The notes beneath the pieces are model-generated. The model was not told where the DNA came from, did no database searches, and saw nothing but the letters and a program-made list of their open reading frames with translations. A program made the translations under genes and the position numbers. A stretch of 61,057 nt of DNA, filler included, from Sphacelaria rigidula (taxonomy: Eukaryota): the NCBI GenBank assembly GCA_964200075.2. It is 5 parts of 5 records of this genome, joined end to end, with 100 filler letters (N's around TTAATTAATTAA, not from the genome) between each part and the next. Parts side by side here need not be neighbours in the genome. Positions count along the whole stretch, not along the records: positions 1 to 12,134 come from CAXNAA020004090.1; 4 more parts are not named here. One strand, written 5' to 3'. Shown here piece after piece: positions 1-61,052 of this stretch (the stretch's first letter is position 1; every line of letters starts with the position of its first letter).

Positions 1-588
1 CTCATTGCGGGCGGCCGCGTCGCTCCGACGAACATGCCCACACACCCCCGCACGCCCCCCCCCCCCCCCCCTAAACCAGCCCAAAAGTGTCACGAAAACA
101 AAGGTCATACAGCGCCTCATGTTTGGGTTCAGACTACATGAACCGCCTCATGTGGGCGACATTAGCGAGAACGAACCCAAGCGTGGGAATTCCCGGCTGC
201 TCGTGGTGCTCGGCTTTTTCCAATCCGATTTAGGTGAAGATTTTGCTTCCCCAAACCAAGCACTTTTTTCGGGGGGGGGGGGGACATCGTAGAAAGTGTC
301 TAATATAGGATAAACAGCATTTCCAGGTTACGATGCAATTCTGGATCTGCGGTCTCGGACAGTGACCGAAATATATATATTTGTACAACTTCGAAAAACG
401 TAGCTCGCGAACAAACCTACTATTGGATTACCAGCAGGTTAGCCGGATGCCTCAAAACGTACGTGATGCATCCGACGGCATTGTCAAGTTATATCGACGA
501 GCGCATCTGTTCCGTTTGCGTATAGCTACTCAAGCACTCGGCACTCGGACCTGATTCGAATACATTAAAGTAAAAAACATGTCAAAAA

Positions 589-905
589 CATTCCAAGGGT
601 CGAGACGAGTTTTTTTATTCGTTTAAAGCATACGTACGTGCGTATTGTGTAATCGATCCGTGCCGCACGAATCAATAAATCCTTGGGCTTTGTTTTCAGC
701 GTTGCACCCTAGGTACGCGCACCCCCAGATGGGCACGTCGACCGTAATATTGCAATGTTTGCGTACTGTCGAGACCTTTCTGACCCACGGTCAAGTTACT
801 CCTCTCTTTCGAGCGACCAAGTCTCCGAAGTCGTAGATGTGGTGATTCGAACCAGCGATGTTTTGTCCTGCCCTTGGAACATAACACAGAAAGTCGGCAT
901 CTCGC
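589..905 (+). repeat. Old dispersed repeat, homologous to about 44440-44730
   Basis: Collinear shared blocks ATTCCAAGGGTCG, ACGAATCAAT, GCTTTGTTTTCAGCGTTGCA, CTCTCTTTCGA, GTGATTCGAA and GTCGGCAT on two different scaffolds. Confidence 0.7.
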
Positions 906-1210
906 TCGGGGAGCATTGCGAACTAACTCCTCGGTAGTTGTCTCTGACTCGTCACCATGTTAGTGGTGCCTTGTGTGATGACTATCTCGTGGTATATGTA
1001 GTTGACACGCGATGGTCAATGCAGACGGATGCGAGCCCTGATATCGCCAGTAATCGCAGCTGCCAAGTATCTTCGTGATTTTACACACATCGCCATTAGC
1101 TCTACTGTGTCGTCTACTATACAGAATACATACGCTAACGTCATGGAGTACCATATGCGTCAGTTCCTTTCCCCCCCCCTCCCCCCCCCTCCTGTTTAAC
1201 AAACCTTCTA

Positions 1211-1488
1211 TGAGCAATGCTACGGTAGGGATTGCACTTTTCGTTTCCGGGTCTCTTTTTTGTAGAAGCCCAAATATATGGGGCTTACTCTGCGACCCAA
1301 ATCTCCGGGAATCGAACTCCCATAAACATGGTGTTTGCACGCAGGGGCCTTGTCGTGAATCGGCAATTTTTTCAATCTTTTTCAAGTAAAAATGATGCTG
1401 ATTCTCGAAATGGTCCGCCCAACACCCCGAGCAGCCCCGAGAAAAGGTTTCGCTAAAAAAAGTGCAATCCCTACCGTAGCATTGCCCC
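1211..1488. mobile_element. MITE with 28-bp perfect terminal inverted repeats, TA-flanked
   Basis: GCAATGCTACGGTAGGGATTGCACTTTT at 1214-1241 and its exact reverse complement at 1458-1485. TA at 1209-1210 and 1489-1490. No ORF inside. Confidence 0.85.
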
Positions 1489-2239
1489 TATACATATTTT
1501 ACACTTTGGGTGAAGAACTCCACAGCGGCAGAATGAAGGCATCCGCGGGGGTGGTCGAACGCACCCAGATTTTTTGTTGTTGTTGTAAAACTGATCTTCT
1601 TCTACACCTTTTCTATGGGATGTGCGGAGGTAGGTCTCTAGGCAACTCCGAACAAAACTCGTTCGCCTTGTTTGTTGTTTCTACTCACCACATTAGTTCG
1701 ATTTTTCCGAGTCGCGGTCAACTCGTAGCAATCTCTCTAAAGCGGTGTGCATCTTCACTCCGACTGCAGCGGCATACTTTCAAGACCTGAGCCAATTTCA
1801 GTGTAGGTCTGACTACGTCTGGTACCGTACTTGGATCGAGACTACCCACGCGAATTCGAGCTCGTGTAAATTTGGTGGTTGCACAATTGTTTCAGATGAG
1901 GACTACTACACCCCCTGCTACTGCATACGTTGTTCATTCTGTGCATGTGTTGCAACTCATGGATTGCATCCTCTTTCTCGCATATCACTCTTGGTATCAT
2001 GGTTGTCATGCGAATTCGTTTCCTCATGTTGGGGCGGGGAGTATTCATCTCGTCAACTATTCCGAACGCACAGTACAATATAAGATCCGCAGGCCAAATA
2101 TAGAAACGGTCGTGCACCCTACACAGAACCTGTTCCACGCAGTACAGACCAAAGGCACCAACAACCGTGCGCAAGAAATACATCATCCTGCTCTATCCTT
2201 CGTGTAGAATATCCCGACACTCTTCTGCCCATATCTCAC

Positions 2240-2531
2240 CGTCTTTAAAAATGGGCACGTGACACTTAGGACACCTCTTCGTGGACGATCCCATGTCCAC
2301 CGAAGCGTTCCTCGTACCCTTCCTCGCACCGTTCCTCACACCGCTCCTGTCACCGTTTCTCGCGCCGTTCCTTGCGCCGCTCCCTGTGCTGCTTCTCTGG
2401 TTCCCAGGGGCGCCGCCTTCAGCACCGCGCCCATCCTCCTCCACCTCATCTCCAGTTTCCCTGTTACAGTCAGGATCGCTATCGTTGTGGTTCTCACCGC
2501 CTTGCCAACCCGACGCGCTGGACGCACGAAC
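2240..2531 (-). CDS. Parkin-like RBR E3 ligase, exon with low-complexity linker and start of RING2 (gene partial)
   Basis: Acceptor taaagcag|GTT and donor GACG|gtgaga. Translation VRASSASGW...SSTKRCPKCHVPIFKDG resembles Parkin TTKPCPRCHVPVEKNG. Phase 0 matches the preceding exon. Confidence 0.85.
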
Positions 2532-3170
2532 CTGCTTTATTAATATTTTGGGATTCCGATTCCGAACTTTTCTTTTTTGTCGGGAGGACGGGGGGCATGG
2601 TTTCGAGCCTGTACATCATCTCTGCCGTGGAATCAAATCGGTTATTACGCATCGTCCCCCTAGAGACGCACTTTCAGCAGACCTGAGCGCGTCGTGTGGA
2701 GAGTGTATGTTGATTTGTGCTAACTGATGCGAAATTAAGAGAGACGACGGGAAAAACACACAACCGAATGTGTCAATTGCACGAAGACCATCGTAGTCTA
2801 AGATACGCTCCCCCGCGTGCTTCTGTACGCACTTCGCACAGAAGTTCCGTCTTGCGTCTTGCTCGAACACAAAAAAAGTAAGAGCGCATGTTTTTTGCTC
2901 CCAATAATCACGAAAGTTGTATCATTCGTTCGCGATTCAGGGAACTCCTTCTTCACCGTAAAAAAAAATAACACGTTTCATTTGCTTCTCTTCTTGCAGG
3001 CATCCATCCTACAACCCAAAATTTGGGACGACATGATCTCATGTTCTTCGACATACGCATGCTCAACATGACGCGCACACGGGAAGGAGAAGCCAACCGC
3101 ACGTCTGCGATTCTAACCCTAAGTCCGATGGCTTGTGGAAAGAACGACGGCCTCGGAATGAACGACCTAC

Positions 3171-3614
3171 CCCGTAGCAGCTCTCATCAGATCCGTGGGA
3201 GTGGCGACATACAGTGCACAAGGACGTACGGCACCCCGGGCACTCGATGTGGTATCCGTCGACGCTCTGTGATCCCGACGAATGTTCGACCCCTTCGTTT
3301 TCGGTTTTCCACCACGTCCAAGTCGAGATACGGGCAAGAGCCCGGTTTCTCGCTGCCGGGTTATCCTGGGTGCCGGATCGCGCGCCGGATCCAACAGCGC
3401 CGGATTCCGTGATGCCAGATCCAGATCCAGATCCAGATCCAGATCCAGATCCAGATCCAGACCCGTGTGCTTGTTGTTCCTGTTGTTGGACTTTTGCGGC
3501 ATCAGGGGCCACGCCACAGTGGCAGTTGGGGCACCAGATGATGCGCATGTCGGACGCGAGGTGTATGGCGCAGAACCGACGATACTTGACCATTTGCCTC
3601 GGCCCTAAGATTGC
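3171..3614 (-). CDS. Parkin-like RBR E3 ligase, IBR-domain exon
   Basis: Pyrimidine-rich acceptor cccattcccctcacag|GCA and donor GGG|gtaggt. 148 codons AILGPRQMVKYRRFCAIHLASDMRIIWCPNCHCG...IECPGCRTSLCTVCRHSHGSDESCYG show IBR Cys/His spacing. Confidence 0.88.
3415..3462. repeat. (CCAGAT)n hexanucleotide repeat encoding a Gly-Ser run in the IBR exon
   Basis: Seven perfect CCAGAT units plus CCAGAC. Reads GSGSGS on the minus strand. Confidence 0.95.
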
Positions 3615-4031
3615 CTGTGAGGGGAATGGGGAGGTTGAGGTTGTGGGGACGAAGAAACACAGTCGAAGAAGACGCCCGGGAGTGTCCGGTGAGATGAGCT
3701 GCCTGTGATCTCTTGACCAGTGAGCGATGATTGTCGTTACAGAGATACACCCACATGTATGTCGCTGTATAGGCACGGCGAGAGCTTCAGCACTACTCAC
3801 TGCTTGATGTGGATTTGTTCAGTGATCTCGTACGTGACCGTGCCTTCCTGTACTAGATGCACTGTTGTGAGCTATGACGTAGATCTACGCAAATTTTGTT
3901 CGTCGAGTGCGTACGGGAACGAGAGCGCGACCCGACAGCCATATCGTTGGCATGGGTAGAAGCTCGCACTAACTGCATCGCGATTCCCTTGGGTCGCCAG
4001 TCCAATCCTCTGCCGGGCAAATTACACGCAC

Positions 4032-4181
4032 CTCGAAGCAAACAGGGTCGATGAAGCTGTCTGCGCAGCCCATTGGACACCCCACGGTGTAACCATCAAA
4101 ATCGTGAGATGTCACGAGCCTGCAGTCGTTGACCCGGCTCTCGACGTAGACCTCGAAACAATTTAGACACATCACGTGAGA
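4032..4181 (-). CDS. Parkin-like RBR E3 ligase, exon with C-terminal part of RING1
   Basis: Acceptor cgcaacag|TCT and donor GAG|gtgcgt. SHVMCLNCFEVYVESRVNDCRLVTSHDFDGYTVGCPMGCADSFIDPVCFE resembles Parkin [42 protein letters not shown]. Confidence 0.88.
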
Positions 4182-5319
4182 CTGTTGCGGACTTTCACCA
4201 ACAGCCTCTCTGACGAATCACACGGGGACATGCGTGAAAAGCAGCGAGGTTGGCATCGGATCAGAACATAGGGTGGATCAGCGGTAAACTTGAGTGTAGG
4301 ACGGGGTAGCTGTCATGTCATGCATGCGAGTACCAGTTCTGCTCGATGATGCACAGTAAGAGGGTATTAGCTTGGTATTAGCTCGTTAATAAAGTGGACC
4401 GACGCAGAGTACCCGTAACTATGCCGATGCCGAACACCAACCTTATTCCCGTCCTAACCTCTACTGCCATCCCCAACCCCAACACCGGCCCGGGAAGTAT
4501 GCCTCCAGCACGACGTGAAACATTCTCGTTGGCTATAAAACCGAAATCCGCGTCGCGATGGAGGGCTTTGAGAGATGTATGATCAGTACGTAGCCGCCCT
4601 CCTGTCTTGTCCTCGGCAGACTGCAGGAAAGGTTATTGCTGCCGGAGAGCATCAAAATGCAACAACCTTCTCGGAAGTTTTACCGAGATTAGGTCACGAG
4701 GTTTCAACTTTGCCGTTCTTATTGCGAGTACTCTTCGTTTATAACGCTCGACCGGTTGCAACGGTATCGGCTAAATTTACCCAACATCAAGGGATCGGTA
4801 TCCCTACGTGTCATAATCCACCCGGCGAGAGATGATGAACGATACGTTCACGCTGAAGTGTCGCACACGACGTAGCACCCTTCGAAAACCGATTAAATAA
4901 TTTAACTCGCCCTCCCCAGTATGATAGACTACTTTTGAATATATATATATATATATATATGCTCCCCTGCATCTTTAGACTGCGACACTCTGGCGTCCAT
5001 CTCACCTGCTGGAGTTTTCACCAAAATTTCCGTCGTCTATCCTGGCGGAAATTTTTGTCAACCGCCGCTCCTGTAGAGAGGAATACGACGAGTATAGCCA
5101 GATGCACTTGAGGCGTTTTCCAGACCGTTGGTCAGCCGGCTTGCGTAGTTGAAATGGGAGTTATCTTGTACGGCGGTGCCGGGCCTGTCTGTACGCTTTG
5201 GGGGGGGGTCAGCTTCGGGCAAGACAGCAGTACTTGCGGGATTTGCGTCTGAAATCAGCAGTATCTTTAATCCAATACCTGATATTAACCCCGATTTTCT
5301 TCCGTGACACTTCTAGCCT

Positions 5320-5450
5320 CTTCCCTTCCTCGGGACGAGTCCATGGTCTCAACGGACCTACCTATCTCTCCCCCGGCACATGCCGTGCATCTTGTTATCG
5401 TGGATTGGATCATGATCAGCACTGCGTGACCGCGTCGACTGCCGTCAACA
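5320..5450 (-). repeat. Partial copy of SINE-like family B (see 40838-41130)
   Basis: 27-bp identity CCCTTCCTCGGGACGAGTCCATGGTCT with 40849-40875, then diverged collinear similarity (TCTCCCCGG, GGATTGG, TCAGCACT, ACCGCGTC). Confidence 0.7.
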
Positions 5451-5481
5451 CTTGTGCTCTCCTTACCCCCTCAGGCTTCAA

Positions 5482-5545
5482 CTCCGTCTCGAAAGGGATG
5501 CGTGGTCAACGGTCAAACGACTAAGGCAAGCCACAAATGAGTACG
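5482..5545 (+). mobile_element. 64-bp poly-C-associated element, copy A
   Basis: CTCCGTCTCGAAAGGG...AAATGAGTACG flanked by the near-duplication CCCCCTCAGGCTTCAA / CCCCCCTTCATGCTTCAA. Confidence 0.9.
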
Positions 5546-7279
5546 CCCCCCTTCATGCTTCAACGACGAAAAGCGAATACTACTTAGAAAAAAGACGTAT
5601 AGACTTCGTTCCATCTGCTGGGAATCGATATCCCCACGGTCGTGTTCGGTAGGGTATATCGGCTGAAGGTCGAGTATTTACATATATAAAAAAGGGGGTA
5701 TTTTACCGAAAATCTAGAAGCATTGCTTTCCAACGACGAAGCATCACAATCTTCGGCCTGTTTCCTGATCGGAGTGCTAAATTTGTGTGTGTGCGGGTGT
5801 GAAAATCTTAAACTTTTGTTTTCGACCTTCCCGGGCAGCAAACATAGACTCGAGGAGCAAAAAGAGAAGAATTTGGGGACACAAATGACGTGGAGCTGTC
5901 AGACGAGATCTTAGCAGTTCTGCCGCTCAATTTTCGTCGCCAAAACCTTGACAAGGCACGCCCTGATAATGATGCTCGTATGTCGAGGAGGATTGCAAAT
6001 CATGACTCTGTTATCGTTACCTCACCCTGACCTGGGCCCCAATGCTCCCCATGCCAACGTACGTATCGAGTACAAGGCGGAAAACTTCTCCACGCGATCA
6101 AGCGCCAATCGCCTTGCGCGCGGTAGTACAACAAACGATCTAGAACCGACAGAGGGCGTGTTTTGCTCTGGTAAGACTGGGAGAACGATTCGCCTAGCGG
6201 CGGCCGAAATCCAGCCGGCAACTATCCAATGTCGTAGTGGGGCGTTTATGTAAGTTTAGCTGGTAAATTTGGAGGACTTACAGGCTGCTTTTACTATCAT
6301 TGTTGTTTTCGCCCCATTAGCTCCATCTCTCGAACCCGTGGTCACGCAGCTGTATCGCGGTTTTTGGCAGTCGACGCAGCAACGGCTAGCCTTTGACCCG
6401 CATAGGGGTCTAAATGGGGGGGATGGCATAAGGGAATGGCGGCAATTGGTTCTTCGTGTGGAGTAACGACAAAAAATGTCTTCCTGGAAGCGAAACAACG
6501 CAGAGGAAACGAAGGAGGAGAAGAAATAGTAGGAAAATAAGTAATAGAAACATCAACTGAAAGTGGGAACTATATAGAGCATGTATCTGTATGGGAGATC
6601 ACATAAGTCTTCAGGACGGTGGCGGTTCCCCAGATACTATAGGTGATGGTAAATGAATTGGTCAATGGCCGAAAGCGCCAGGATATAGGCAGAGGTCTAT
6701 ATCAAGGGCGACGCGCATCACGACGTGGAATGTACATATATCAGTTGGGTACGTTTCCTCGTCGTGAATCCCATGTTGACTCTGCAATGGCGTCGCATAC
6801 TTTGGTACTGAATAAAGATTCCTAATGTACAGGAGGAGTACAATGTGTCGCTATATGATGGTTAGATACACCAATAGAGAAGTCTATGCGTAGAAGGTGG
6901 TGATGTCACACCACTGTGTGATCGCAGGTATACATACTAGCGCACATGAAAGCTGCATGCATGCAGAGCTTGCGGTTGCTGTCTCAATCTTCGGAACGTT
7001 AGCTGATGATAATTCTTTGAGTTTTTCATGGTTTTTCATGGCATGTGCGTCAAAACATGAACATGCGGCATGCACCTGTCGTCAATTGCCTCTCCTCGCG
7101 ACGCTCTGTGATCGGCAACCAGTCATATCCTCTGATCGGCTATCTCAGCCATGTCCATCAAACTTCAACGTTGGGCTACAAACACATGAACAAGCAAAGC
7201 ATTTATCCCACCGACTTTTACATAGCGGGTTTGGAACCACTTCCTCGATTCTCCCCTGCATCATCGCTTCGACTCACAG

Positions 7280-9604
7280 TCACGCCGCTCACCCATATAC
7301 AGCGTTTCTCTCGTGTGTCCTCTGAGCTCTTTGAGTGCGAACTCACAAGGTCGAAAAGGCTATGTCTGTTTCGAAACTTTTTTCGTGCTGGCTTCCTGTA
7401 GTTCGGGGACATTGTCGTGATTTCTTGAACGGAAACATCGCGCGATATATCTTTGTCTTGCAAAACGACATACCCACGGTACTTCATGAACGTCGTTCCA
7501 CGTAATGACCCCCTTCCTTAGCTTGGAGTGCCTTTCCATGGTGAACACGACTTGACTTTGACGAGATCTGCGCATTTCTGCAATGAAGGTCTTAACGCAG
7601 AGCCGGTAAACCTCTTCGGGCCCCACCCTCATAAGCGGCGAAGAGAGCGCTGTTACTGGCTGGTCGTTAGTGCAGAAAATGATGCACACAATCAAAGTCA
7701 ACCACGCACGCTCAAGAGTTGCAGAAAAAGACGTGCGGTTCATGCGTACCCCACCGGTCACAACAAGTACTACAGCAGTACAGTACAGTAATAGTCGAGC
7801 ACAGCACTGCACAGCGCTGCACAGCACCGCACCCCACAGTAGTGTACTATGCCCCATCTATGTCTAACCACGTCAAACACAGACGCGACTGCCAGCTCGA
7901 AGTCAGAGCAGCATCGGCGGGCGTTCGGGGTTGATCGCTGACCACCCAGTATATTCGTATACAGTACAGTATATATATATGCGGAGAAATGTGCCAGCAT
8001 CATCCACATTTACATCAATTTGTGTGCAGTAGTGCTCGCGGCTCTGTGCCCCGGATCACGTTGCAGCCAGCCATGGCTGGAGGGGATAAGTAGGAATGGC
8101 GGCTTCTGCCATCACTGCGTATCGCAGTCCTCACGTACTTTCGGTTCACCTGATCTCCCAGCTGCTCGTTGTGTTGGTAAATCGGATGGGTTGGCTTTTA
8201 GTTATGTCCACGGAGGGGGCTGGTATAGGGGCTCTCTTGTATAGTTTGCGTCTATTCTAAATCCAAATGATAAATGCTCGCGCAACATAATCAAGCCTTC
8301 TTCTAACTACAATCAGATGAAATATACCCGGGAGGGCCCAGGTCGTCTAAAAACTATCTCGGTGTCCTGTGTACCTCTTTGCAATTACTTGATCGAAGAA
8401 TAGGATTTGTTCTCGCCCCGACACGCTTTTCCTGTATGAACAAAAACACAATGCCCGTTTTTGGTCGCGGGTTCCTTCATCGCGCAACCCTCTGCTGATA
8501 TCATTCGTTCCACACCACCGGAAATTTAACCAATACGTCGTCAACACTACATTCATGTAAGACTGTATCACGCCCTGGGATCCAAAAGGGTGACGGGCCT
8601 GAATAATCTCGCAGCCTACTCGCCTCGCATCTGAAGCTGACGTTGATGCCCTCCACATGAGAAAGGCAGGCCAAGCAATTCTCGTCCTTGGAGCTCTTAT
8701 GAAATCCAGGTAACTTGAGCAGAAGATCATCGTCTCGATTTTTGCCCGATCCTGTTTCATTTCCACTTGCTAGCCCAGCATCTTCAACTTCAGCTTCACT
8801 CTCGCGTGGAGATGCGTATTCAGACGTGGTTCTTCTTGTGCTCTGGTGGGACGACAGATCGCCACTGTTGGTGCGGTGGTCTCCCCCAGCGCCGATGGTA
8901 TCCTGGTGTAAGATTGTTATGTACGTGAAGTACTCATCCACCCAAGAAGTCTTCGTTCAAAGTACCACCATGCAGCTGGCGTCCAATTCAATGAGAGTTC
9001 CCATCAACTTACAACCTCTGTCCACCTGGAATCACGGGGAGCATGGCTCACCGACCTGTGCGAGATTGCTAGTAATAGGTCACTGCAGACTATCTTGAGA
9101 AGTCTTGATATGCGAACGTACTGGCGACACGCTGAATTGGCCTTACATGTAGCACTATCGAGCAACGATTATCGTACAACACACGTCGACCGCTCCTGGT
9201 AGTGCACTGCACAGGTGCATCTTCATTCCGGTCAACCCTTTCCAGTAGGAATTGAGGCCTCTTACCTTGCTGTGACCTTTGCCTGGCCGTCTCCCTTTCA
9301 CCGATCCGCGTCCCTGACTCCCACCTTCATGAGGCCTTTTGATACCGCGGTTTTGATGTTCAACGCTTCCAGCCTCTGCCGCCGCCAGAACTGCCGCGTG
9401 TCGTCCAGCAGATACTGCAGCAGCAGACTTGGCTGCAATGCTAACGCTGCCACGCCTGGTCTTTGATGATTGGCCAAATTTCATGGGCGAGTGTTCGCAG
9501 AATCCATACTCGACCCCACAATCGGGGCACAGAGGTAATCCCGAGCGTGTGCGCTGTACCCAGCTGCTCGAAGCACCGCCTCCAGATTTCGACTGCGTGG
9601 ACAT
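7280..9604 (-). pseudogene. Decayed multi-exon coding remnant of unknown family, possibly TE-encoded
   Basis: Open first exon 9604-9266 (MSTQSKSGGG...CPDCGVEYGFCEH...GKGHSK|gtaag). Further exon-like segments near 9055-8500 and 7660-7280 have splice signals but contain stops or frame changes. Confidence 0.35.
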
Positions 9605-12134
9605 GCCTAATACGGCAGATCGGCAGCTTTTTCGTACGAACTTGACCTTCACTGCCACCCCAGTGTCGTTCCGTCCAGATGAATAAGATGCAATCGATAG
9701 TGGCAGTATGCGCTTGAAATAGAGTGCATAATTCAGCATAGGCTATGCCGTGGGCATTCAATCGGCACCTCCCTGCTGCTCTATTGGTGCAGTTTCACAT
9801 CATCTGTCAAGGATATCAGTATCATGTACGGCACAACACAGATCCGCCGCATTGTTGACCCTACTTGCCCCGCCTATTATGAGGTCATTAGAATGATAGC
9901 ATCGTAAAATATAGATCATTTTGTCCTCATCGTGAGATATCACCCCCTACATTATGCCCGATCTCGACTTTCACTGTAGAGAAGATTTATTTACCATAGA
10001 TAAAGTCAAATCCATTAACCCCTAAAAATTTTGTCCTAATAAAGAAGTATTGACTTCATCGCCAAGCTTAAACTCGAGGAAATCGAGACAAAAAAGTCTG
10101 TCGCGAAGGGGTGTTATACACCGTAGTCTAGGGACACGCGGCCCCATCTCGGCCAAACGGAGCGTAAGCGGGTGAGAGCTGTGGTGTGGGTATACCGGGA
10201 CGGGCGACGGTCGACTTCACGCTGAGGTTCTGAAGATTTTTTCAGGTGAAGCTCGTTGTCTCTGCTGTAGCTGTGGTTGGAGGGTATATTTTGCCGTGCA
10301 CTTTACTGGCGAGAGGTGTTTTCGGAGGGTGGTAGGTGTGGTTGAGGTGTCTGGGGTGGGTCTTGTGCCTCGTATGAAGTTGTTGGCTAGGTTTGTTGCC
10401 GGATAGTTCCTTCACGATGTGCGCAGTGCTGGATGCTTATGCTCTGTATGGCAGACGGTAACTTCGGGTCTGGGAAGCTGCACTGTCCGTTCCCGACCGT
10501 CGAAAACGAAGTTCCTGCCTTGCGCTTTGTCCTAACGATCTCGCTCTCGGTACAGACGCGACAGGAAGTAGTACTCTCACCTCACAGGCAACAGCTTGCT
10601 AGACAGGCAATAGACAAAAGTGAGTGCAGTCTGTCAGATGAAGTAGTCTTCTGTGATGATCTCACCCCACAAGCACGTACAGGAGTTGAAGACCAACCAA
10701 GCAGTCAGCTGTGCGGTGCGTTTACACTGTATCTGCACCCATCTGCGGTACTGTGAGCGCTATCACTGCCCGAGCTTCATCTGGCCACTTGAACCGCGGG
10801 TAGAACTTTCCAGAAGTAATACTGTACAGCCAGCTCGAAGTGCGTGGACACGTCCAAAGACACAACTCAACGAGAGACCCAGCCGTCAGTATGATAGGGT
10901 AGTTCAGCGGTACACAACCATTGTCTGTGTTGTCTGTGTGTACTCTGTGCGGCGTGACCGCGTAAGAAGAGATGGGCGTTGTCCCCTCTTCGGTTCCGCA
11001 TATGTATACCGCCTGCAGCGTTGTACGGTGAAATTGAACATGCGGGTTCACACAGAGCCAGAACAACATCGTGCATGCACCGACACAACAGCATGTCAGT
11101 ACCGTACAGACAGTACTGGAACCCGCTACCTCGGTACGCACACTGTCGTGTCGTGTACAGGTCACGGCCCATACAACCTTGGTCTCTTTTGTCCGCCCAA
11201 CCACTTGGGTGTAGCCCTCTACGCTCCAGGGCTGTTGACGCTGATCCGCAATGGTATGGCCCACTGTCTGGGATGCGGAGTGCAACATCGGACCCCACAA
11301 CGATGATATAGCATTTCAGTATTTGAAGTGGAAGTCGTAAAATATTCACTAGAGGAATGACACGTCCGGCCCTGTTCCTCACTAGCATCGTCGAACGCAG
11401 GGGGATTCCCGTGTGCACATGGGAATAAAGGAAATCGGTCCTCGCTGAGAGGTTGGATGTTTGCTTGCCTTCTACTGCTGTAATCAATTCTAGTGCCTCT
11501 CGGCACAAAGTACGTGGCGTGTTCCTTTGGCTACGAGAGGGCTCAGATGCGAATACATGAACACTGCTATTTTGGAGCCAGAATAATCATGACACGATCC
11601 GTCCATGTCCGTGAAAAAAATATCGTCGGGTCGAATGCACAGATATTGGTGTCCGAACAGCCCGCTGTCGCTGTTCGTGGTCGTTTTTTACGTCCATGCT
11701 CGGTCCGCTGTATCCAAACTTGCGATGGGATCGCACCACAACCTTGTGTACACGTGACTACCCTTAGATGCGGTCATCCTCCGGGCTAAAAGAAGGCACT
11801 CTAGTCCTTGTGTCCTTGGGGGCAGGGGTTGGTTGCCCCACCTTGAGCATGTTTCGATGATGCACTGCACAGGATTAAGGACACATACAGTACGGGCAGA
11901 GCAGTAAGCGTGTGGTACTGTACCCCTAGTTGACGCATTTCATCTCGTGCTTTTTGCAAGCATGTCCGTTTGTGTCCATTTTGCACGTATCATGATCCTG
12001 CATTTCATTGATCCGCGATTACTCTGCTGGTGTTGTGTACTCCTTCACAATTTCGTGTATATCGGAATATTCCATACGTCGGACGAGCACGAGTGTCACT
12101 CGTGGCACTCGTGCTCGTTGGGCTGCTCGTTGGC

Positions 12135-12234
12135 NNNNNNNNNNNNNNNNNNNNNNNNNNNNNNNNNNNNNNNNNNNNTTAATTAATTAANNNNNNNNNN
12201 NNNNNNNNNNNNNNNNNNNNNNNNNNNNNNNNNN
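12135..12234. other. Artificial scaffold linker
   Basis: N44-TTAATTAATTAA-N44, giving stops in all six frames. Identical at four positions. Confidence 0.98.
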
Positions 12235-13626: not shown

Positions 13627-13763
13627 GGGGGAGGGGGGGGGGGAGAACGTGCCGGCGTTTGTGGTCGGAAGCAGGAGTGGAGACAATGAAAGGAGTGTAA
13701 GGATNNNNNNNNNNAAAAAAAAAAAAAAAAAGAAAAAAAAAGAAAAAGAGGAAAAAAAAGAAA

Positions 13764-24368: not shown

Positions 24369-24468
24369 NNNNNNNNNNNNNNNNNNNNNNNNNNNNNNNN
24401 NNNNNNNNNNNNTTAATTAATTAANNNNNNNNNNNNNNNNNNNNNNNNNNNNNNNNNNNNNNNNNNNN
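24369..24468. other. Artificial scaffold linker
   Basis: N44-TTAATTAATTAA-N44. Confidence 0.98.
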
Positions 24469-25816: not shown

Positions 25817-26379
25817 CTATTCGCACGAAAAATGAAGACAATACACCCTGCAAATGTACAAAGTAAACGGGAGAAAATACGCGACCATTCTCTGAACAAA
25901 CGTGCATTTTTCTCCACGTCAGAATCATATCTGTTATTTCCCTGCCGTTTACCCTTCATCCAGTCTACGAAAAGGGTCGAGGGAATCAGAAGGCGCCGAA
26001 CGAACACAAGAGACCCCCCAGGGACGCGGGAGGGCAAGGGTCATATGAAAACGGCGGATTGGGATACGAACACACAACTTCCTGTCAAGATTCCATCTGC
26101 GCTGCGACGCGACACATCAAAGCAATCTCACACACCAGAGAACAGACAAAATCACCCCCCCCACCCTCCCCCCCATCCCTTTCCGCCACCGCATCCCCCC
26201 TCCACGCAAACTAGTGTCAAGCGGCATACCATAGAAGGTGCATACGAGTCTATTAACCAGGGCGAAACGGAACCCCAAGTTCGGCTTCCTCAACAAGTAA
26301 GACATTCCACCCCGCTCCCCGCCCGTCCCCATCAATTTTGCCGGTCAAGAGGTGTATCATAGATGTATACGGATTACAC

Positions 26380-29300
26380 CGCCCGGGCGACAACAAAACC
26401 CGAGGTCTACTTCTTCACCAAGCAAGCCTTCTCCTTCCCCGTCTGCTTCCTCATGCGAATACCACGCGAGGCGAGAAGAAATCCCAAGGTCGACGTCCTG
26501 TGAGAGCAAACTTCTCTCCTCCCGTCCCCCGCCTACGCAACTTCAGGCTGACACGAGGAATACGGCAGGCGATATAATATGTAGTACAACACTCAGGGTG
26601 GCAAAACAAACAAGGGCTGCCTTCTCAAAGAGCAAGCCTTTCCATATCCCCGTCTGCTCAATTATGCGCAAGCTACGCAGGATCAAAAGAAATAACAAGG
26701 TCGACTTTCTCAACGAGCAAACCTCTCCCCTCCCCGTCCTCCGCGTACGCAACTTCGGCGCAAAATGAAGAATCACGTGGGCGATACACGCAATATCTCA
26801 TCGAGGGCGACGACCAATCGCAACCTCAACTCCTCTATCAGCCAGCCCTCTCCATCCATTTCTCACCTGCTCTCTCATGCGTACCGTAACCAGGGCAACA
26901 ACAAATCCCAACCTCCTTTTCGTCAACGAACAAGTCTCTTCCTCACCGCCCCGTTCTGAGCGGGGCCCGCCTGCCGAGGGGCATTCCATACGTGATGCAC
27001 GGAGTATGCCACACAGGCCAAAAGTAAATCAAACGCTCGACTTCTGTTACAACCACGTCCCCCTGTCTCTTCGCCCTCCTTTCCACGCCTGTACTACCCA
27101 GGTCACAACAAACTTCAATGACGACTCCCTATCAACAATCAAGTCCTCTCCCTTCCGCCCCCCCCGCCAATCCCCACCTCCACGTGTATACCACCGAGGC
27201 GACGAGAAACCTCTGGCTCGACCTCCTCAACAAGCCAGCCCTCCCGACCCCCCGACCCCGACTTCAGCGGCCAGCCCTCGCCCACCACGACCCTTTGAGA
27301 CCCTCTCCGACGCGAATCTCGCCTGCGTGCAAGCATACAGTCAGATATGCGAGGTACATACCTAGGGCTACCACAAATCCCAACCTCGACTTCCTCAACA
27401 ACCATGCCCATCTTTCCCTTTTCCATCCGCGTACATCATTTCCGCCTGCCGCAACACACACCACAGGAAGCATCCTACCGTGGGCGACGACCAATCGCGA
27501 TCTCGACTTCTTCATCAGCCATCCCTCCCTCTTTATAACATGCCCTCTCTTTCGTACTCTACCCAGGGCGACACCAAATCCGAACTCCCTCACTTCCCTT
27601 GCTGAGCGGATTCCGCCTGCCGAGGGGCATACCGTACGTGATACACGGGGTATGCCACACAGGCCAAAAGCAAATCCGAAGCTCAACCCCCCTTACAAGC
27701 ACACCCTTCTGTCTCCGTGTATTATCCAGGCCACATCAAGCTCAACGTCGACCCCTTATCCACAATCAAGTCTCCTCCCTTTCCCGCTCCCATATCCAAT
27801 TCCACGCGTACACCACCGAGGCGACGAGAAACCTCTGGCGAGACCTCAACGAGCCCGCTCTCCCAACCCCCCTGCCCCGACTCCGACGGCCAGCCCTCGC
27901 CCACCACGACCCGTTGATCCCCTCCGATGCAAACCTCGCTTGTCACCATGCACACAACCTCGGATATACGAGTTACACACCCAGGGCCACCACGAGTTCC
28001 ACGCTCAACTTCCTCAACAACCATGCCCTTCCTCCCCTCCCTCACCCGCGTACATCATTTCCGCCTGCCTCAACACACGCCAGCATCCCACCGTGCGCGG
28101 CAACTAATCGCAACCTCGACTTCTTTATCAGCCAGCCCTCCCTTTTCACCACTTACTTGCCCTCTCTTTCGTACACCACCCAGAACGACCCCCAAATCCG
28201 AACTCCCTCACTGCCCCATTCTGAGCGGGCTCCGCCTGCCGAGGGGCATACCGTACGTGATGCACGGGGTATGCCACACAGATCAAAAGCAAATTCGAAG
28301 CTCGACTTCCGTTACAAGCACGCCCTTCTGTCTCTGTGTTTTACCCCGGCCACAGTCAAGCTCAACGTCGACCCCTTATCCACAATCAAGTCCTCTCCCT
28401 TTCCCGCTCCCATTTCCAATTCCACGCGTATACCACCGAGGCGACGAGAAGCCTCTGGCTCGACTTTCTCAACGAGTCAGCCCTCCCGACCCCCCTGCCC
28501 CGACTCCAACGGCCAGCCCTCGCCCACCACGACCCGTTGACCCTCTCCGACGCATATCTTGCCTGTCAACACCCACAATCTCCGATATGCGAGGTCCACA
28601 CACAGGGCCACCACAAATCCCAACCTCGACCTCCTCAACAACCATGCTCGTCTTTCGCTTCTCCATCCGCGTATATCATTTCCGCCTGCCGTAAGACACC
28701 ACAGGCAGTATCCCACAGTGGGCGACGACCAATCACAACATCGACTTCTTCATTAGCCAGCCCTCCCTCCTTCCCACCTGCCCTCTTCTTCTTGGTTCAA
28801 CACCCAGGACGACACGAAATCCCAAGTTCCCCACCTCCCTTACTGAGCGGATTCCGCCTGCCGAGGGGCATACCATACGTGATGCACGGAGTATGCCACA
28901 CAGGCCAAAAGCAAATCAAACGCTCGATTTCTGTTACAGGCACGCCTCCCTGTCTCTTCGCCCTCCCTTCCACGCCAATACTACGCAGGTCACAACAAAC
29001 TTCGACGTCGACTCCTTACCCACAATCAAGTCTTCTTCCTTCTCCGCCCCCGCCAATCCCCACCTCCACGCGTATACCACCGAGGCGACGAGAAACCTCT
29101 GGATCGACTTCCTCAACGAGCCAGCCCTCCTCCCCCCTGCCCCGACTCCAACGGCCAGCCCTCGCCCACCACGACCCTTTGACCCCCTTCGATGCAAATC
29201 TCGCCTGCCTGCACGCATATCATCTCTGGTATGCGAGGTACATACAAGGGCCACCACAAGCCCCAACCTCGACTTTCTCAGCAACCATGCCCATCTTCCT

Positions 29301-31750
29301 CTTTCCGATCCACGTACGTCATTTCCGCCTGCCGCAACACACACCACAGGCAGCATCCTACCGTGGGCGACGACTGATAACAACCTCGACTCCTCCATCA
29401 GCCAGCCATCCCCCTTTACCCCTCTGCCCTCTTTTTGGTACACTACCCAGGGCGACAACAACCCCCAACTTCCTCGCTGCCCCTTCCTGAGCGGATTCCG
29501 CCTGCCGAGGGGCATACCGTACGTGATACACGGTGTGCCCCACGCAGGCCAAAAGCAAATCCGAAGCTCGACCTCCGTTACATGTACATTCTCCTCGTTT
29601 TCCGCCCGCCCTTTCTATCTCTGTATATCACCAAGGCGACAAGAAATCATCATGTCGACATTCCACTCAGGCAATCCTTTCCTCTCCCCCCGCCCTGACT
29701 CTCCGTCTTGAAAGGGGTGGGTGGTGAATGGTCAACGAGTAAGGCAAGCAACAAGTAAGTACGCCCCTCGCCCCGACTCCAACGCGTACGCGACCAGGGC
29801 GCTAACAAATATCAAGTTCGACTCCCCCAACAGGCCAGCCCTCCCCCCTAGGCCCTGCGGCCTTCTCCGATGCAAATTTCGCCAGCCACGAGGTATGCAA
29901 TATCTGGTATACGGAGTATACCATCCAGGGCAACAACAATTCCCAAGCTCGGCTTCCTCGAAAAATAAGCTCTCCACCCTTTGCGCCTACACTAACACGC
30001 ATGTATCACCCAGGGCAACAACACCTCCCGAGCTGGATTCCTCCACAAGCGGCGTCTTCCTTCCCGACCTCCCGGCCACAGAGGATTTCACAAGTTTTAC
30101 ACGAAGTGTCCGACTCAGGTCGACAACAAACCTTCAACACGACTCCCTGCACACGCAAGCTCTGCTCCATCCCCGCCGCCACTCCCACACATATACCACC
30201 CAGGCCGACAACAGATGTTAAGCTCGTTCTTCTCCACAAGCACGCCCCTACCCCGTCGCCTCTATCCCCTCGTGATGGCCACCAGGGCCACGTCGAACCC
30301 TACGTTTGACGTCCTCAACGAATCACGCCTCTCCATCAGGCCCTTCGACCCAATTTCCCGCAAATTTCGCCCGCCACAAGGCACACGATAGGGACAAGAT
30401 TTTCAGTCACACAAAACCGAGATACACCCAGAGCAACAAATGTGTGCGAGCTCGGCGTTCTCCCCAAGCAAGCCCTCACCCTCCTGCTCCCAGTGCTTCC
30501 ACAGCAACTTTGCCTGCCACAAGGTTTACCATAGGCGACATATGTTGTATATTACCCAGGGCGAAACGAATTCCCTCAGTCGACCGCGTTTTCACAAGCA
30601 AGCCCTTCGCCCCCGCCCCCCTCCCCTGCTTCTACGCAAATTCTACCCATCACGAAATACACCATACATGACAGACGTACTGTAGAATATCATCCAGGCG
30701 TAAACATTCGCCAAGCCCAGCTCCCTCGACCTGCAAAGCCTCATCCTTCTGCCCCCCGCACCTACACGGCAATTCTGCCTGCAACAAGGCTTCCCATAGA
30801 TGGTATGTGTTCTACAACACCCCTGGCGAATCGAACTCCCCACCTCGACACTCTCCACAAGCAAGTAGGTCGCCCCCCCGTCTTCTTTCCCTGCTCCTAC
30901 GCACATTACGCCCGCCACAAGGCAGACCATACATGACAGACGTATTCAAGTATATCACAAAGGGCGTAAACATTCCCCGACCCCAACTTCCTTCACATGC
31001 AAAGCCTCATCCTCTTGCTCCCCGCACCTACAAGTTGATCCCCCTTGAGACGAGACGTACCATAGGTAACATGTGCAGTGTACCACCCAGGGAAAAACGA
31101 CTCCCCTACCTCGGCCCCATCTGCACAAGCAAGCCCTTCCACCACCTTGCCTCCCGTCCCTCTCCATGCGAATTCCGCCTTTGACGAGACACACATTAGA
31201 TGGTAGATGCAATATATCACCCAGGGCGAAAACATTCCCCAAGCTCGACTTTCCTCGCAAGGACATTACTGTGCCCCACTCCCCGCTCCCATTTGCTAGT
31301 TCCGCCTGTCATGAGGTGTACCATAGGTGGTATACGGAATATACCATTCAGAATGACAACAAACCCCAGCTTTGACCCCGCTCTCCGCAAGCAATTCCTT
31401 CGCCCCTGTCGTCTATCATCTCCTACTTAGTCTCTGTCTGCCGCAAGGCATATAACGGAAAGGAAATCACAAGGTCGGCTTCCTCCACAAGTCGGTCCTT
31501 CCGCCCCCCTGCCCGCCTCTTCTATCCGAGTTTTGCCTGCCACGAGGTATACCGTGGTCAACATACGTAGTACATCACCCACGGTGAAACAATTTTTCAA
31601 GCTTGACTCTCTCTGCACGCAGGCCGTTCGCTCGCGCCCGCTCCTCCTCTTCCTCCTCTACCCTAATCCTGCCTGCAACGACGCCTACGATGGTCATCCA
31701 GGGCTACAAAAAAACTCTCAAGTTCGATCCACTGTACAAGCAAATTGCTT
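26380..31750. repeat. C-rich degenerate tandem array: about five ~620-650-bp higher-order units followed by diverged ~130-bp monomers
   Basis: Marker TGAGCGG...CCGCCTGCCGAGGGGCAT recurs near 26957, 27603, 28222, 28844 and 29488. The sub-motif CCAGGGC...AAAT/AAC...CTCGAC...CAAGCAAGCCC recurs about every 130 bp from about 30550 to 31350. Confidence 0.9.
29701..29763 (+). mobile_element. 64-bp poly-C-associated element, copy C (diverged, 63 bp)
   Basis: CTCCGTCTTGAAAGGGG...AAGTACG flanked by CCCCCCGCCCTGACT / CCCCTCGCCCCGACT. Confidence 0.85.
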
Positions 31751-34700
31751 CATTGCCGAGAGATTCCGTCTCACGCCATTGTATGGGCTCGTTCCCTTAT
31801 TGCCAGGTCAACAATGCAAGGGCCAGCTCACACAACGCTACTCTGTCCGCATGACGGCACCGAATTTCCCATCGATGGAACATGCTCACGCTCGTGCGTG
31901 TGCGTGTGCGTGTGTTGGTGGTGGGGGGGGGGGGGGGGGGGGAGGCAGAGGGGGGGTTTTTTTTAACAATTTTTTTTTTCCCCAAAACANNNNNNNNNNG
32001 GTGGTCGGCCGGGGGGGGGGGGGGGGGGGGTGTGGTGGGGGGGGGGGGGGGGGGGGGGGGGGGGCAAGGTCAAGTGCCGCTTTTGATAATCAATGTGTTG
32101 TTGCCACAAAACTAACTGATCCGACGGCCGCTATCATACATCATTCCATCACACGCACAAGCTCGCGACTTTTTCGCCAGGTCGAAATCCCAACTCAAGG
32201 ATAATACACACATACCGATACATATTGTTCATGAAAAAAAACGGTTTCCAACAGCTTCTGCTTTCCAGCTTCCTTTTCTACCATCATGTCACAAACTGAC
32301 CGATGTATCGAGGGACATCCACCACCCATCGTCATCATCCTCATCATCATGAGAATCCTAGCTCCTCAAGTGAGATAGCAGGACGATGAAGGTCGCAGCT
32401 TGTGGACGCCCACGACCACCTTGGTAGCCCGTACCACTTCCACCATCACACCGCACACCGTAGGAGACAGGGCATCTCATGCGCGACCTCCAGAACCGAG
32501 CTGAACATTAACCAACGACAAGGTAGGGTGGCGAGGCGTGGAGGTGTTTAGTTTGCTCGGGTCTAATCTATTTCCTCTTCATTATACGCCAATTTTGGTC
32601 ACTTGTCTATCTATTGAATTGGCATCATCTTCACTTGAAAAATACGCGTCAGATGTAGATCTCCATCATTGAGCGCCGACAGGAACAGCCCCTTCGCCGC
32701 TTTTCTCGGTACGTGCTCGTTGTCTCAGGGATTCGTCCAGTTACCCGACTCCCCCTAGACAGGGTAGGATGAGGCGCAGGCATTCAGTTGTTGTTTTCTT
32801 CAGGGAATGGGGAAGGGTAGCATTCACTACAAACTTCAACTGCTAGGTAGTGATTAGGTTTAGTCCCGTTTGTGCCAATGCGACAGCAAAAGGTGACATG
32901 ATATTGATGCAGGAACGCTTCTGTGAAGATATCAAATGATCTCTGGCAAAAAAATGAAATTGAGAGGGAAATCCCAGCAGGTATCAAGTAACGTTCCACT
33001 CGTAGGGAAAGACCATGTCTGTTGGCTGTTGGCAGTCACAGCTACCGTGGAGTACAAGATTATTTGACGCCTGAGCATACCACAGTCACACCTCTTCACG
33101 TCATCTATATTTCGTACTTCTGTAACCTGTATCAGCACCTATGTAATATCCTTCACTAGGCATGTAGGAAAATGTGCGACCTGCATCAACCCCCCCGGAA
33201 GTTGCCCTGCAGTTTGCTTAACCCGAAGAGAATTCGATTAGCACTTCCCGTAGCCAATCAACTTTCACCATGTTTCCCGCCCCAACCAAATTTCCTTCTC
33301 ATTGCTCTTCGACACACTTGGAAAAATACGGTGCATCTGTGTGTGTGTGTCTGCACAGTCTGAATACGTCGGAAGAGGCGTGCCCTCTTACCATTTGGTA
33401 AACGAGGGGCTTCAGTCGCTGTAGTGGAGGAGGAATATATAGTGCTAGGTGCGGAGTGGAGGATGAGCAAGACTTCGTCGACGCCAACCACGGGCTTGTA
33501 GAAAAAATGACTCCCACATGCGCTGAACGATTCCGACGGAGAAATCGGATGACCGACATTCCTACCGTTTCTCTTGGAGGATCCGCTCATCTCCCCAAAT
33601 TTCAATTAACGTCCCAGGAAAGTAAAGTGGAGCGTTTTCCAAGCGAGGCCTACGATCATTTTGTAAAGGGTTGCATATCGGCATCGATCGATATTGTTCC
33701 GGTCCAGCTCCCTGCTTCTGTGGGATGATCAAGAACGGTCTGGGGGTGTTGTGAGGCAGTGCTCGAAATACAACTGTCAGGCCGATACTGGAGGGGGGAA
33801 GGGGAAAATTCATGTTTCGAGACTACGGGCTCATCACCAAAAGCAGGGAGAGGCGGTTGATCCTAGGAGAAAACTCGATAGATGAAATACGAGCACAAAG
33901 AATGCCTTGAAAATATGTCGATTGGCTAGTACAGTATAGGACAGGAAAGTATAGTACAGCTAGCAAGTTAACTTCGAGACACACTTTCGACCGGCCGGTT
34001 AGTTGCTCAGTCAAAGAAGTAATGGTCGTCCTTCTCATGGTCACCTCCCGTGTACGGTAGTCCTTCCCCCCCATCGGCCCGTGGTGAAGACAAATGGCTT
34101 GTGTGTGCTACTGTACCGTAGGTTCAGTTTCCATGTGAGCAGAGTCGTTTTGGTATTGGCGTTGCGTAAACCGTGCCGAGTAGTGAAAATAGAAATTGTG
34201 GCGGGAACGTGTGTGGCGTGACGAGTCTCATGTTGTAGACAATCAGGCCGTACTGTACGTGTGCAGGGAGGATCGTATCGGAGTGCAAGATAAGTACTGG
34301 TACAACATTGCAATGAATGCACAGCAGTGTATCTAGTGCACCACATTCAACAACAACTGATGACCTTCGTTTACCGTCTCAAACTACAGAAAAAGATGTC
34401 ATACGACTTGCAAGTATTTAGTACAATACGGTATCTGTCGTAGGGCAGTACGGCGCATAACGCTTACTCTACAGGGCCGCACGAGCACGAGTAGTAAGCA
34501 GAACCGCATCAGTGGCCTTCTGCAGCAGCGGAGTGTTTCGGTTTACTCATCTTACGTACTTCTGCCATCCTTTGACCATGGCTCCGTTCGAAAACCCGAT
34601 CATTTAGATCATTTAACCGTGACGCAATCAAGCGATCGATCGAATACAAGGCTATTAATATTACAAGTGCAAACGTGTGTTGGCCAGGATACTGATACAA

Positions 34701-36600: not shown

Positions 36601-36700
36601 NNNNNNNNNNNNNNNNNNNNNNNNNNNNNNNNNNNNNNNNNNNNTTAATTAATTAANNNNNNNNNNNNNNNNNNNNNNNNNNNNNNNNNNNNNNNNNNNN
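36601..36700. other. Artificial scaffold linker
   Basis: N44-TTAATTAATTAA-N44. Confidence 0.98.
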
Positions 36701-48829: not shown

Positions 48830-48929
48830 NNNNNNNNNNNNNNNNNNNNNNNNNNNNNNNNNNNNNNNNNNNNTTAATTAATTAANNNNNNNNNNNNNNN
48901 NNNNNNNNNNNNNNNNNNNNNNNNNNNNN
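48830..48929. other. Artificial scaffold linker
   Basis: N44-TTAATTAATTAA-N44. Confidence 0.98.
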
Positions 48930-58812: not shown

Positions 58813-59640
58813 TAGCGATAACGGGTTTGAATTCTCGGAGGGTGTATTTCGTGAACTGTGCGACAGGGAAAAGATCAAGCAGGAGATGACAACTGCCGAC
58901 TCACCCCAGATCGACGGTGTTGCAGAACAAGCGTTGGGTATCATCGAAACAACAGGCCTTGCGGCCAAGATCCAAGCATCTGAGCTGTACCCAGATGAGC
59001 GCATCCCAAATGGTGACGGCCTGTGGGCTGAACAGGCAAACTGGGCGTGTCGCACCCTGAACTATTCCGCTATCTCGGCTAACCCGAACCACAAATCACC
59101 GCATGAGATGTGGTACGGATCACCACCGGACGGTGATCCCATTCCGTTCTTGAAGCCTGGGGTTTGTAGGAGGAAGCGGACAAAGAAATTACAGCCGAAG
59201 GCGGAAAAATGCTGGTATTTGAGCCCAGCCCCAGGCTACCCACGTGACGCGATGCGAGTTTTAACTGTACGAGGAACTATTACCGTGAAAAGGCATGTAA
59301 GATGGGTAAGTACGTCCGCCGCTCCCCCCCGCACACTGCAGCAAGCGATCCAGACGCCGGGCGAGCCGAAGGATTCCAACGTCGATCAAGGACAGGGAGC
59401 GAACGAGGAAAGGATGGAAAGCTCGACAGTGGACACTTCGTCCAGCGGTTCCCCGAGCGCACCGTCCTCCCCGCCGAGTTCCGTTGGTGGGAGGGGCAGA
59501 GTAGCACCGCAAATCCCCGTCAGTAGTGGAGGGGGCGAAGTGCCTTCACCGTCCCCGCGAGGGGGGGGGGGTAGGCGGGGTGATACCAGAGATCCCAGTT
59601 CCAGATTTTGTCAACTGAGGGGGTGAGGCGGAGCTAGAAT

Positions 59641-59641
59641 T

Positions 59642-59687
<46 letters not shown>
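59641..59687. repeat. (TCA)n microsatellite in the Copia integrase-RT spacer
   Basis: About 15 uninterrupted TCA units. Confidence 0.95.
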
Positions 59688-60988: not shown

Positions 60989-61052
60989 CGTACTCATTTG
61001 TTGCTTGCCTTAGTCGTTTGACCATTGACCACGTATCCCTTTCGAGACGGAG
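60989..61052 (-). mobile_element. 64-bp poly-C-associated element, copy E, inserted into the Copia RT
   Basis: Interrupts YRNAVGG at its G-run (CGCAGTGGGGGGG). The right flank CACAG resembles the left flank CGCAG, a partial TSD cut by the window end. Confidence 0.9.

Follow-up and report, generated by a model that had tools for sequence, protein, structure and literature searches.

A 61,057-nucleotide stretch of the Sphacelaria rigidula assembly GCA_964200075.2 (hereafter the window; five parts joined end to end, the first being CAXNAA020004090.1) carries on its minus strand the first four-fifths, counted from the 5′ end, of a transcribed gene with many introns that encodes a brown-alga RBR (RING1-IBR-RING2) E3 ubiquitin ligase. 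The gene probably represents a non-animal sister family of Parkin, placed beside animal Parkin and outside it, whose members would be anchored by a farnesyl group and would act independently of PINK1. The comparisons below draw on seven full-length relatives of the same algal type (P0003, P0004 and P0007 from brown algae, together with P0021, P0022, P0031 and P0038), five canonical Parkins, and four other RBRs (ARIH1, P0041, plus P0040, P0042 and P0043). Exon coordinates are collected in Table 1.

The Parkin-type RING1 that the initial annotation had recognized from the sequence was borne out by profile searches. Exon A (4181-4032), which encodes the C-half of the domain (H-x2-C-x2-C, long loop, GYTVGCPMGCADSFI), matched the Pfam family PF17978 (zf-RING_14) with 48.5 bits (E = 1.2e-12, cutoff 26.6), and this was the sole Pfam family at E ≤ 10. 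Because the canonical Parkins P0027, P0028 and P0030 score 125-130 bits with the same profile, the match is real but distant. PF17978 was likewise found in all seven full-length relatives (35-60 bits) and in none of the four other RBRs. The brown-alga proteins combine it (40-47 bits, C-half of the model) with IBR and PF22605 (29-33 bits); P0027, P0028 and P0030 have Ubl, RING0 (PF17976), PF17978, IBR and PF22605. With Parkin (PRKN, the animal R0RBR) the algal gene shares the PF17978 RING1, with its loop ...GYT-x-x-CP-x-GC-x-DS-x-I and the K/R-Y-x-R-F helix that follows. In the broader forms GYT-x-x-CP-x-GC-x-[DNGE][ST] and [KR]-Y-x-[RQN]-[FYL], the end of the long loop and the helix occur in canonical Parkins as well as in the algal type and in none of the four other RBRs; the same holds for a gap of at least three residues separating the third RING1 Cys from the His. 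Parkin is the best match of the algal family among solved structures, by sequence and, for the predicted model considered below, by fold. With P0003 as query (phmmer), Parkin came first (1.5e-18, then e-17 to e-15) and the RING1 stretch matched Parkin chains only; ARIH1 was matched at 2.5e-12, via RING2 alone.

The full-length relatives carry a Parkin-type RING2 (GGCNHM-x-C ... FCW ... C-x3-HW). Its catalytic motif G-C-x-H-M-x-C is invariant in all seven, as are the catalytic Cys, His and Glu; the catalytic Cys-x-His, the Glu that precedes FCW and the tail C-x3-H-W are shared with Parkin. The tail (W...C-x3-H-W) occurs in 7/7 relatives and 5/5 canonical Parkins and in 0/4 other RBRs; for the window gene both this tail and the exon with the catalytic motif would lie off the window. 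Other features set the algal type apart from Parkin: a very long insert in RING1, placed after the third Cys and ahead of the His, a second insert in IBR, and, in the RING2 motif F/W-C-W-x-[C], a His in place of the Cys (FCW-x-[H]; Asp in P0031). Two more stand at the ends of the protein and are seen in none of the five canonical Parkins. At the N-terminus is a Cys/His knuckle, present in window exon 1 and in four of the seven full-length relatives, with the form SG-[LM]-P-[LI]-C-x2-C-x5-G-x-C-x-H in P0007, P0022 and P0031 and a shortened one in P0021. At the C-terminus, every full-length relative ends in a CaaX box, defined by Cys at position -4, two mostly aliphatic residues and a final S, M, Q or A; the seven boxes read CTAS, CTIS, CTIS, CTLM, CSVM, CTLQ and CIIM. 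The corresponding end of the window gene would lie off the window. The pattern C-[TSI]-[AILV]-[SMQ] is likewise missing from the four other RBRs, and its Cys is constant across the seven relatives, while the rest of their C-terminal tails has diverged.

Farnesyltransferase typically accepts CaaX substrates whose last residue is S, M or Q, and the algal ends fit this rule, from which we infer a lipid anchor at a membrane. The animal RBRs RNF144A/B, RNF19 and RNF217 are held at membranes by a transmembrane helix after RING2; the algal family would follow the same membrane-held logic with a farnesyl group on the CaaX Cys as its anchor. In RBR chemistry, RING1 binds E2~ubiquitin, and ubiquitin passes to the RING2 cysteine and then to substrate. 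In the mechanism we propose, RING1 of the algal ligase would dock E2~ubiquitin, and ubiquitin would move to a RING2 cysteine encoded by an off-window exon and on to substrate, as in all RBRs. Farnesylation would hold the ligase at its membrane, Parkin instead being recruited by phospho-ubiquitin, and the enzyme would not be switched on by a PINK1-type kinase.

The initial annotation had gone further, proposing a true member of the Parkin subfamily and reporting its Ubl and RING0 exons as unseen. Those parts are indeed absent, not as missed exons but as domains that the lineage is without: the Parkin RING1 profile matched, and the Ubl and RING0 profiles did not. No match to Ubl (PF00240) was obtained in exons 1 and 2, in 88 upstream open reading frames (ORFs) or in P0003, P0004 and P0007, and none to RING0 (PF17976) in the same 88 ORFs or the same three proteins. 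The window gene has no cysteine in the ~150 residues between its N-terminal knuckle and RING1, so RING0 is absent rather than overlooked. The phospho-ubiquitin pocket of Parkin, formed by H302, which contacts the phosphate, and R305 after RING1 plus K151 of RING0, is also replaced: where Parkin has the His, the window gene and 3/3 full-length brown-alga proteins have Cys, and where it has the Arg they have Ala or Glu. The algal type has no Trp at the REP position, W403 in Parkin. With Ubl, RING0, the REP Trp and the phospho-ubiquitin pocket all missing, activation of the PINK1 type is unlikely.

This bears on the possibility that the gene is a true Parkin orthologue acting with a PINK1-like kinase in mitophagy. 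The Parkin-type RING1, the Parkin-type RING2 tail of the homologues and a sister position to the canonical Parkins in the tree described below all speak for it, as does the retention of RING0 in two relatives: P0021 has a RING0 match (PF17976, 37 bits), and its alignment with the canonical Parkin P0028 is collinear all the way from RING0 through the C-terminus (E = 8e-33), and P0031, in which Pfam missed RING0, aligns with P0021 across the same region (E = 2e-53). The window gene and the brown-alga proteins nonetheless have neither Ubl nor RING0, their pocket residues are changed, and canonical Parkins have no CaaX end. In addition, Table 4 of PMC3097184 gives Pink1 as 'NI' (not identified) in Ectocarpus, and the oomycete P. 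sojae is said in PMC10912746 to lack both PINK1 and Parkin. Orthology in this strict sense is therefore very unlikely. The Parkin-type RING1 stands and the sister position has support, but the gene is not a canonical Parkin, and the suggested relevance to the origin of PINK1/Parkin mitophagy shrinks to an indirect link, because Ubl and RING0 are absent, the pocket residues are replaced and that table credits Ectocarpus with no identified PINK1.

The position of the algal type among RBRs was examined with IQ-TREE (LG+C20) on 17 rows and 216 kept columns: eight algal-type sequences (including the window gene model, with an X at the exon 2/A junction), five canonical Parkins and the four other RBRs. 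Canonical Parkins formed one group (ultrafast bootstrap/Shimodaira-Hasegawa-like approximate likelihood ratio test, 100/97), the algal type another (89/85), and the two grouped together (94/91). The phylogeny thus puts the gene beside the canonical Parkins, and the approximately unbiased (AU) test rejected a grouping of the algal type with ARIH1 (p-AU 0.021), while some other non-Parkin groupings survived. One must therefore consider a generic or Ariadne-like RBR whose likeness to the RING1 of Parkin arose by convergence or is an artefact that stems from the shortness of the query. Ariadne/HHARI proteins (ARIH1, ARIH2) share with the algal type the RBR order and a nearly identical RING2 start (TK-x-CP-x-CH-V-x-I-x-KDGGCNHM), and the algal RING2 is also a good match to them, as the ARIH1 value above indicates. 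On the other hand, PF17978 is found in exon A and all seven relatives and in no other RBR of the set; ARIH1 lacks it, and its RING1 loop and RING2 tail are unlike those of the algal type. The Ariadne domain (PF19422) is present in ARIH1 P0041 according to precomputed Pfam annotation and not in P0003, P0004 or P0007, and P0021 resembles canonical Parkin from RING0 through to the C-x3-HW tail. Taken with the rejected ARIH1 grouping, these differences make a generic RBR a rather improbable explanation.

Several points weigh against the favoured explanation. Groupings of the algal type with P0040 (p-AU 0.0625) and with P0042+P0043 (p-AU 0.118) were not rejected. The four non-Parkin RBRs, one ARIH1 and three long branches, came from an alignment-based search swamped by low-complexity words (8000 candidates, 7 matches), and RNF14, RNF144, RNF19, HOIP and HOIL-1 are missing from the tree; with outgroups so few and long-branched, and subfamilies missing, the tree is supportive, not decisive. 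Two ESM Atlas look-ups gave generic RBR clusters only, none with PF17978 or PF17976. A Foldseek search with the AlphaFold model of P0022 returned Parkin in all listed rows to rank 31 (4.6e-14 to 2e-7), with HHARI first at rank 32, followed by ARIH2, HOIL-1 and HOIP, but the model is poor (mean predicted local distance difference test score 58.3, domains 70-90) and its template modelling scores are low (0.2-0.3), so that this ranking of a predicted fold reflects local similarity. The IBR piece at 3611-3171 scores 22.0 bits (Pfam, E = 1.7e-4), below the cutoff of 24.3. The sequencing runs behind the splice evidence are presumed to be RNA, which no record states. The catalytic Cys, RING2 tail and CaaX box of the window gene itself are predicted from its homologues, and prenylation, membrane location and independence of PINK1 are all predictions from sequence.

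For the gene model, contigs of four public runs from the same organism (X1-X4) were placed on positions 1-9800. The initial annotation had described three phase-compatible exons encoding the C-half of RING1, IBR and the start of RING2; the three peptide strings it quoted all lie on the minus strand in the same frame, and spliced contigs join all three exons. Joint 4032/3614 was seen in three of the four runs (X1, X2 and X3), joint 3171/2531 in two (X2 and X3), and joint 9266/8902 in X1 (record 5). All three joints are GT..AG on the minus strand, and at them the contigs show zero letters differing from the window. One border moves: exon A begins not at 4181 but at ~4209, because contig cover reaches 4212 and an acceptor (tcgtcAG/A) is found there. 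The gene also exceeds the earlier description by two upstream exons, the second ending at ~8620. Summed contig depth over the ligase exons is 1-4, and cover is missing for parts of the gene, such as 8620-8725.

Table 1 Features placed in the window (splice borders marked by a slash)
Feature	Position	Strand	Evidence and borders
Exon 1	9266..9604	-	tblastn; contig joint 9266 to 8902; donor AAG/GTAAGA after 9266
Exon 2	8620..8902	-	acceptor ccAG/GATACC at 8902, contig-joined
Exon A	4032..4209	-	contig cover up to 4212; donor GAG/GTGCGT after 4032
Exon B	3171..3614	-	both borders contig-joined
Exon D	2240..2531	-	acceptor 2531 joined to 3171 in X2, X3
Last intron seen, start	1..2239	-	no contig piece of the ligase transcript placed there
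Copia-type long terminal repeat retrotransposon pieces	54755-61018	+	Retrotran_gag_2 25.5, Pol_BBD 31.3, RVT_2 75.1 bits

Exon 1 opens with a probable start codon (ATG at 9604, MSTQSKS...) and encodes the Cys/His knuckle, here RTRSGLPLC-x2-C-x7-C-x-H, followed by a basic low-complexity stretch; it had zero matches in Pfam, and its region 9571-9305 matches the N-terminus of P0007 (tblastn, E = 1.3e-09). Exon 2 supplies a cysteine-free low-complexity linker and then the N-half of RING1 (LLLKLPGF...C-x2-C...FRC), with 8893-8615 matching residues 65-164 of P0003 (tblastn, E = 2e-07). Its 3′ border may be the donor at 8619 (phase 1) or that at 8594 (phase 2), or an extra small exon may precede exon A, which itself matches the full-length homologues at E = 1.8e-23 (tblastn). 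Exon B (tblastn match to P0003, E = 3.7e-21) encodes the helix AILGPRQMVKYRRF and then an IBR interrupted by an insert of ~97 residues with a (GS)n repeat. At the DNA level, a hexanucleotide repeat (GGATCT)n at 3409-3470 corresponds to this (Gly-Ser)n run; contig placement passed over it as a repeat. At this IBR site the homologues from brown algae carry another insert, one with an L-W-x-L-W-G motif. Exon D (tblastn against full-length homologues, E = 8e-09) contains a linker rich in Gly, Arg and Asn, after which RING2 begins (TKRCPKCHVPIFKD plus G), and ends in phase 1 at the donor G/GTGAGA. Exons 2 and A supply RING1, exon B the IBR and exon D the start of RING2, with spliced contigs as the evidence for their joining; the order RING1-IBR-RING2 is complete in the homologues.

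The intron position after ...CFE appears in the databases as well. Five brown-alga-type short proteins (P0001, P0005, P0008, P0009 and P0010) continue with V after CF[EKT], that is, all five fragments read through the donor; they are mis-called gene models, and the intron position is therefore conserved. Two ORFs were considered as exons and set aside: 2616-2921 (RRNFCAKCVQ..., with a CxxC string), which lies inside the intron 3170-2532, and 5288-5470 (..ITRCTAC..), a candidate for the RING1 N-half, the true N-half being at 8902-8620.

The exon with the catalytic RING2 Cys was rightly reported as missing from the sequence: tblastn of P0003, P0004 and P0007 gave no credible match to the C-part of RING2 in the whole 61 kb. 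A truncated or decaying copy that has lost its catalytic exon would account for this, and the 2.2 kb downstream consist solely of repeat-like sequence with high contig depth. All five exons are nevertheless open and are spliced in contigs identical to the window. Moreover, a 474-letter contig (X3 record 13) spans 3271-3169 and 2529-2239 and then continues for 80 letters found nowhere in 1-9800. These extra letters beyond the donor at 2240 indicate that the catalytic exon is off the window, not lost, and with 4.4 kb between exon 2 and exon A, a distance of over 2.2 kb to the next exon would be ordinary in this gene. A decaying copy is accordingly highly improbable, and an intact ligase gene would be expected to continue off the window with the GC-N-H-M-x-C exon(s), the RING2 tail and the CaaX end. 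Read-through of a TGA (selenocysteine or Cys at the catalytic site) via a short intron into the ORF 2057-2182 (C-I-S-C...F-C-V-G-C) was also considered and dismissed: the splice yields a stop, there is no Pfam match, and the 80 letters of X3 do not lie there.

The ligase gene has close relatives in brown algae. A protein search with exon A yielded eight proteins from nine candidates, at 67-82% identity. Four of them carry source names, all of brown algae (Hapterophycus canaliculatus, Pylaiella littoralis, Ectocarpus fasciculatus and Ectocarpus sp. 12 AP-2014), so orthologues occur in at least four named brown algae; the other four include a EukProt entry of 453 aa. Among representative proteins, exon A matched 32 at E ≤ 0.001, including canonical Parkins, fragments, P0021, P0022 and P0031, and a search with the RING2 region gave four close relatives only and added P0038. 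These results agree with the earlier assignment to a stramenopile and bear on the concern, raised with it, that the scaffold might be animal contamination. In favour of contamination or a recent transfer from an animal one could cite Marin 2010 (PMC2904391), which describes parkin as an animal-specific RBR subfamily. The Pylaiella, Ectocarpus and Hapterophycus proteins are, however, 67-82% identical to exon A, against 40-60% for Parkin-like representatives, the domain architecture is unlike that of animal Parkin, and the canonical Parkins form a separate group in the tree. DNA runs of the same organism also contain 0.90-0.95 of the window's words. As far as present data go, an animal source is refuted.

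No other gene was recognized by ORF scans within 12 kb of the ligase gene, and Rfam and tRNA scans of 1-10000 found nothing. When 84 of the 116 ORFs of at least 110 aa in the window were scanned with Pfam, only three matched, all of them copia-type retrotransposon pieces at 54.7-61 kb. Within the long RING1 intron, ~70 bases at 5482-5552 (+) reach a summed contig depth of 54,000-78,000 in X1-X4, with many joints and loose ends; a second copy at 61002-61048 (-) differs at 3 of 47 bases. With no Rfam or tRNA match, this is probably a dispersed, highly transcribed repeat. Contig depth is also high, from tens to thousands, at 1-327, 655-1635, 6214-6540 and 7849-8175, and contig joints such as 189 to 8155 and 860 to 5482 link these stretches mutually and to 5482; their appearance is that of repeat-element copies, not of pieces of the transcript of the ligase. 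An inverted repeat was seen by eye at ~1221-1245 and 1462-1486 (tacggtagggattgcac... / ...gtgcaatccctaccgta), enclosing ~220 bases, and is a foldback-like candidate.

Farther along, 26001-32000 has a strongly negative GC skew (-0.30 to -0.40) with an elevated G+C content (0.54-0.57) and contains long overlapping plus-strand ORFs with no Pfam match, possibly a low-complexity or tandem-repeat block. Runs of N at 12135-12234, 24369-24468, 36601-36700 and 48830-48929 each consist of 44 + 44 letters with 12 letters between, at ~12.2 kb spacing; this regularity suggests masking or scaffolding marks, not biology. Two 10-N runs lie at 13705 and 31990.

Literature searches turned up no account of a Parkin-type RBR from brown algae or from stramenopiles, and proteins of the algal type are present in databases as unnamed products only. 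Ubiquitin-dependent mitophagy has, according to PMC10912746, been found in neither plants nor fungi. Against this background we tentatively raise a broader scenario, which we regard as possible rather than probable, in which the RING0-RBR module of Parkin was not invented by animals. Brown algae and other eukaryotes would have a sister family in which the Cys/His knuckle replaces Ubl and a farnesylation signal stands at the end, with RING0 kept in two members and lost in brown algae. Such a PINK1-independent, permanently membrane-tethered 'proto-Parkin' might tag the surfaces of organelles for their turnover in lineages described as being without PINK1 and Parkin.

How much weight the finding carries will hinge on a more complete phylogeny and on which taxa the members with RING0 come from. 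If it is true, a family with Parkin-type RING1 and RING2, at least five brown-alga members and some relatives with RING0 would shift the origin of the Parkin core to a point that precedes animals or lies outside them and would separate that core from PINK1 control. The CaaX end together with the N-terminal knuckle may offer a simple alternative to phospho-ubiquitin recruitment, and the family would provide a natural Parkin-like core, without Ubl or RING0, for structural and enzymological comparison.

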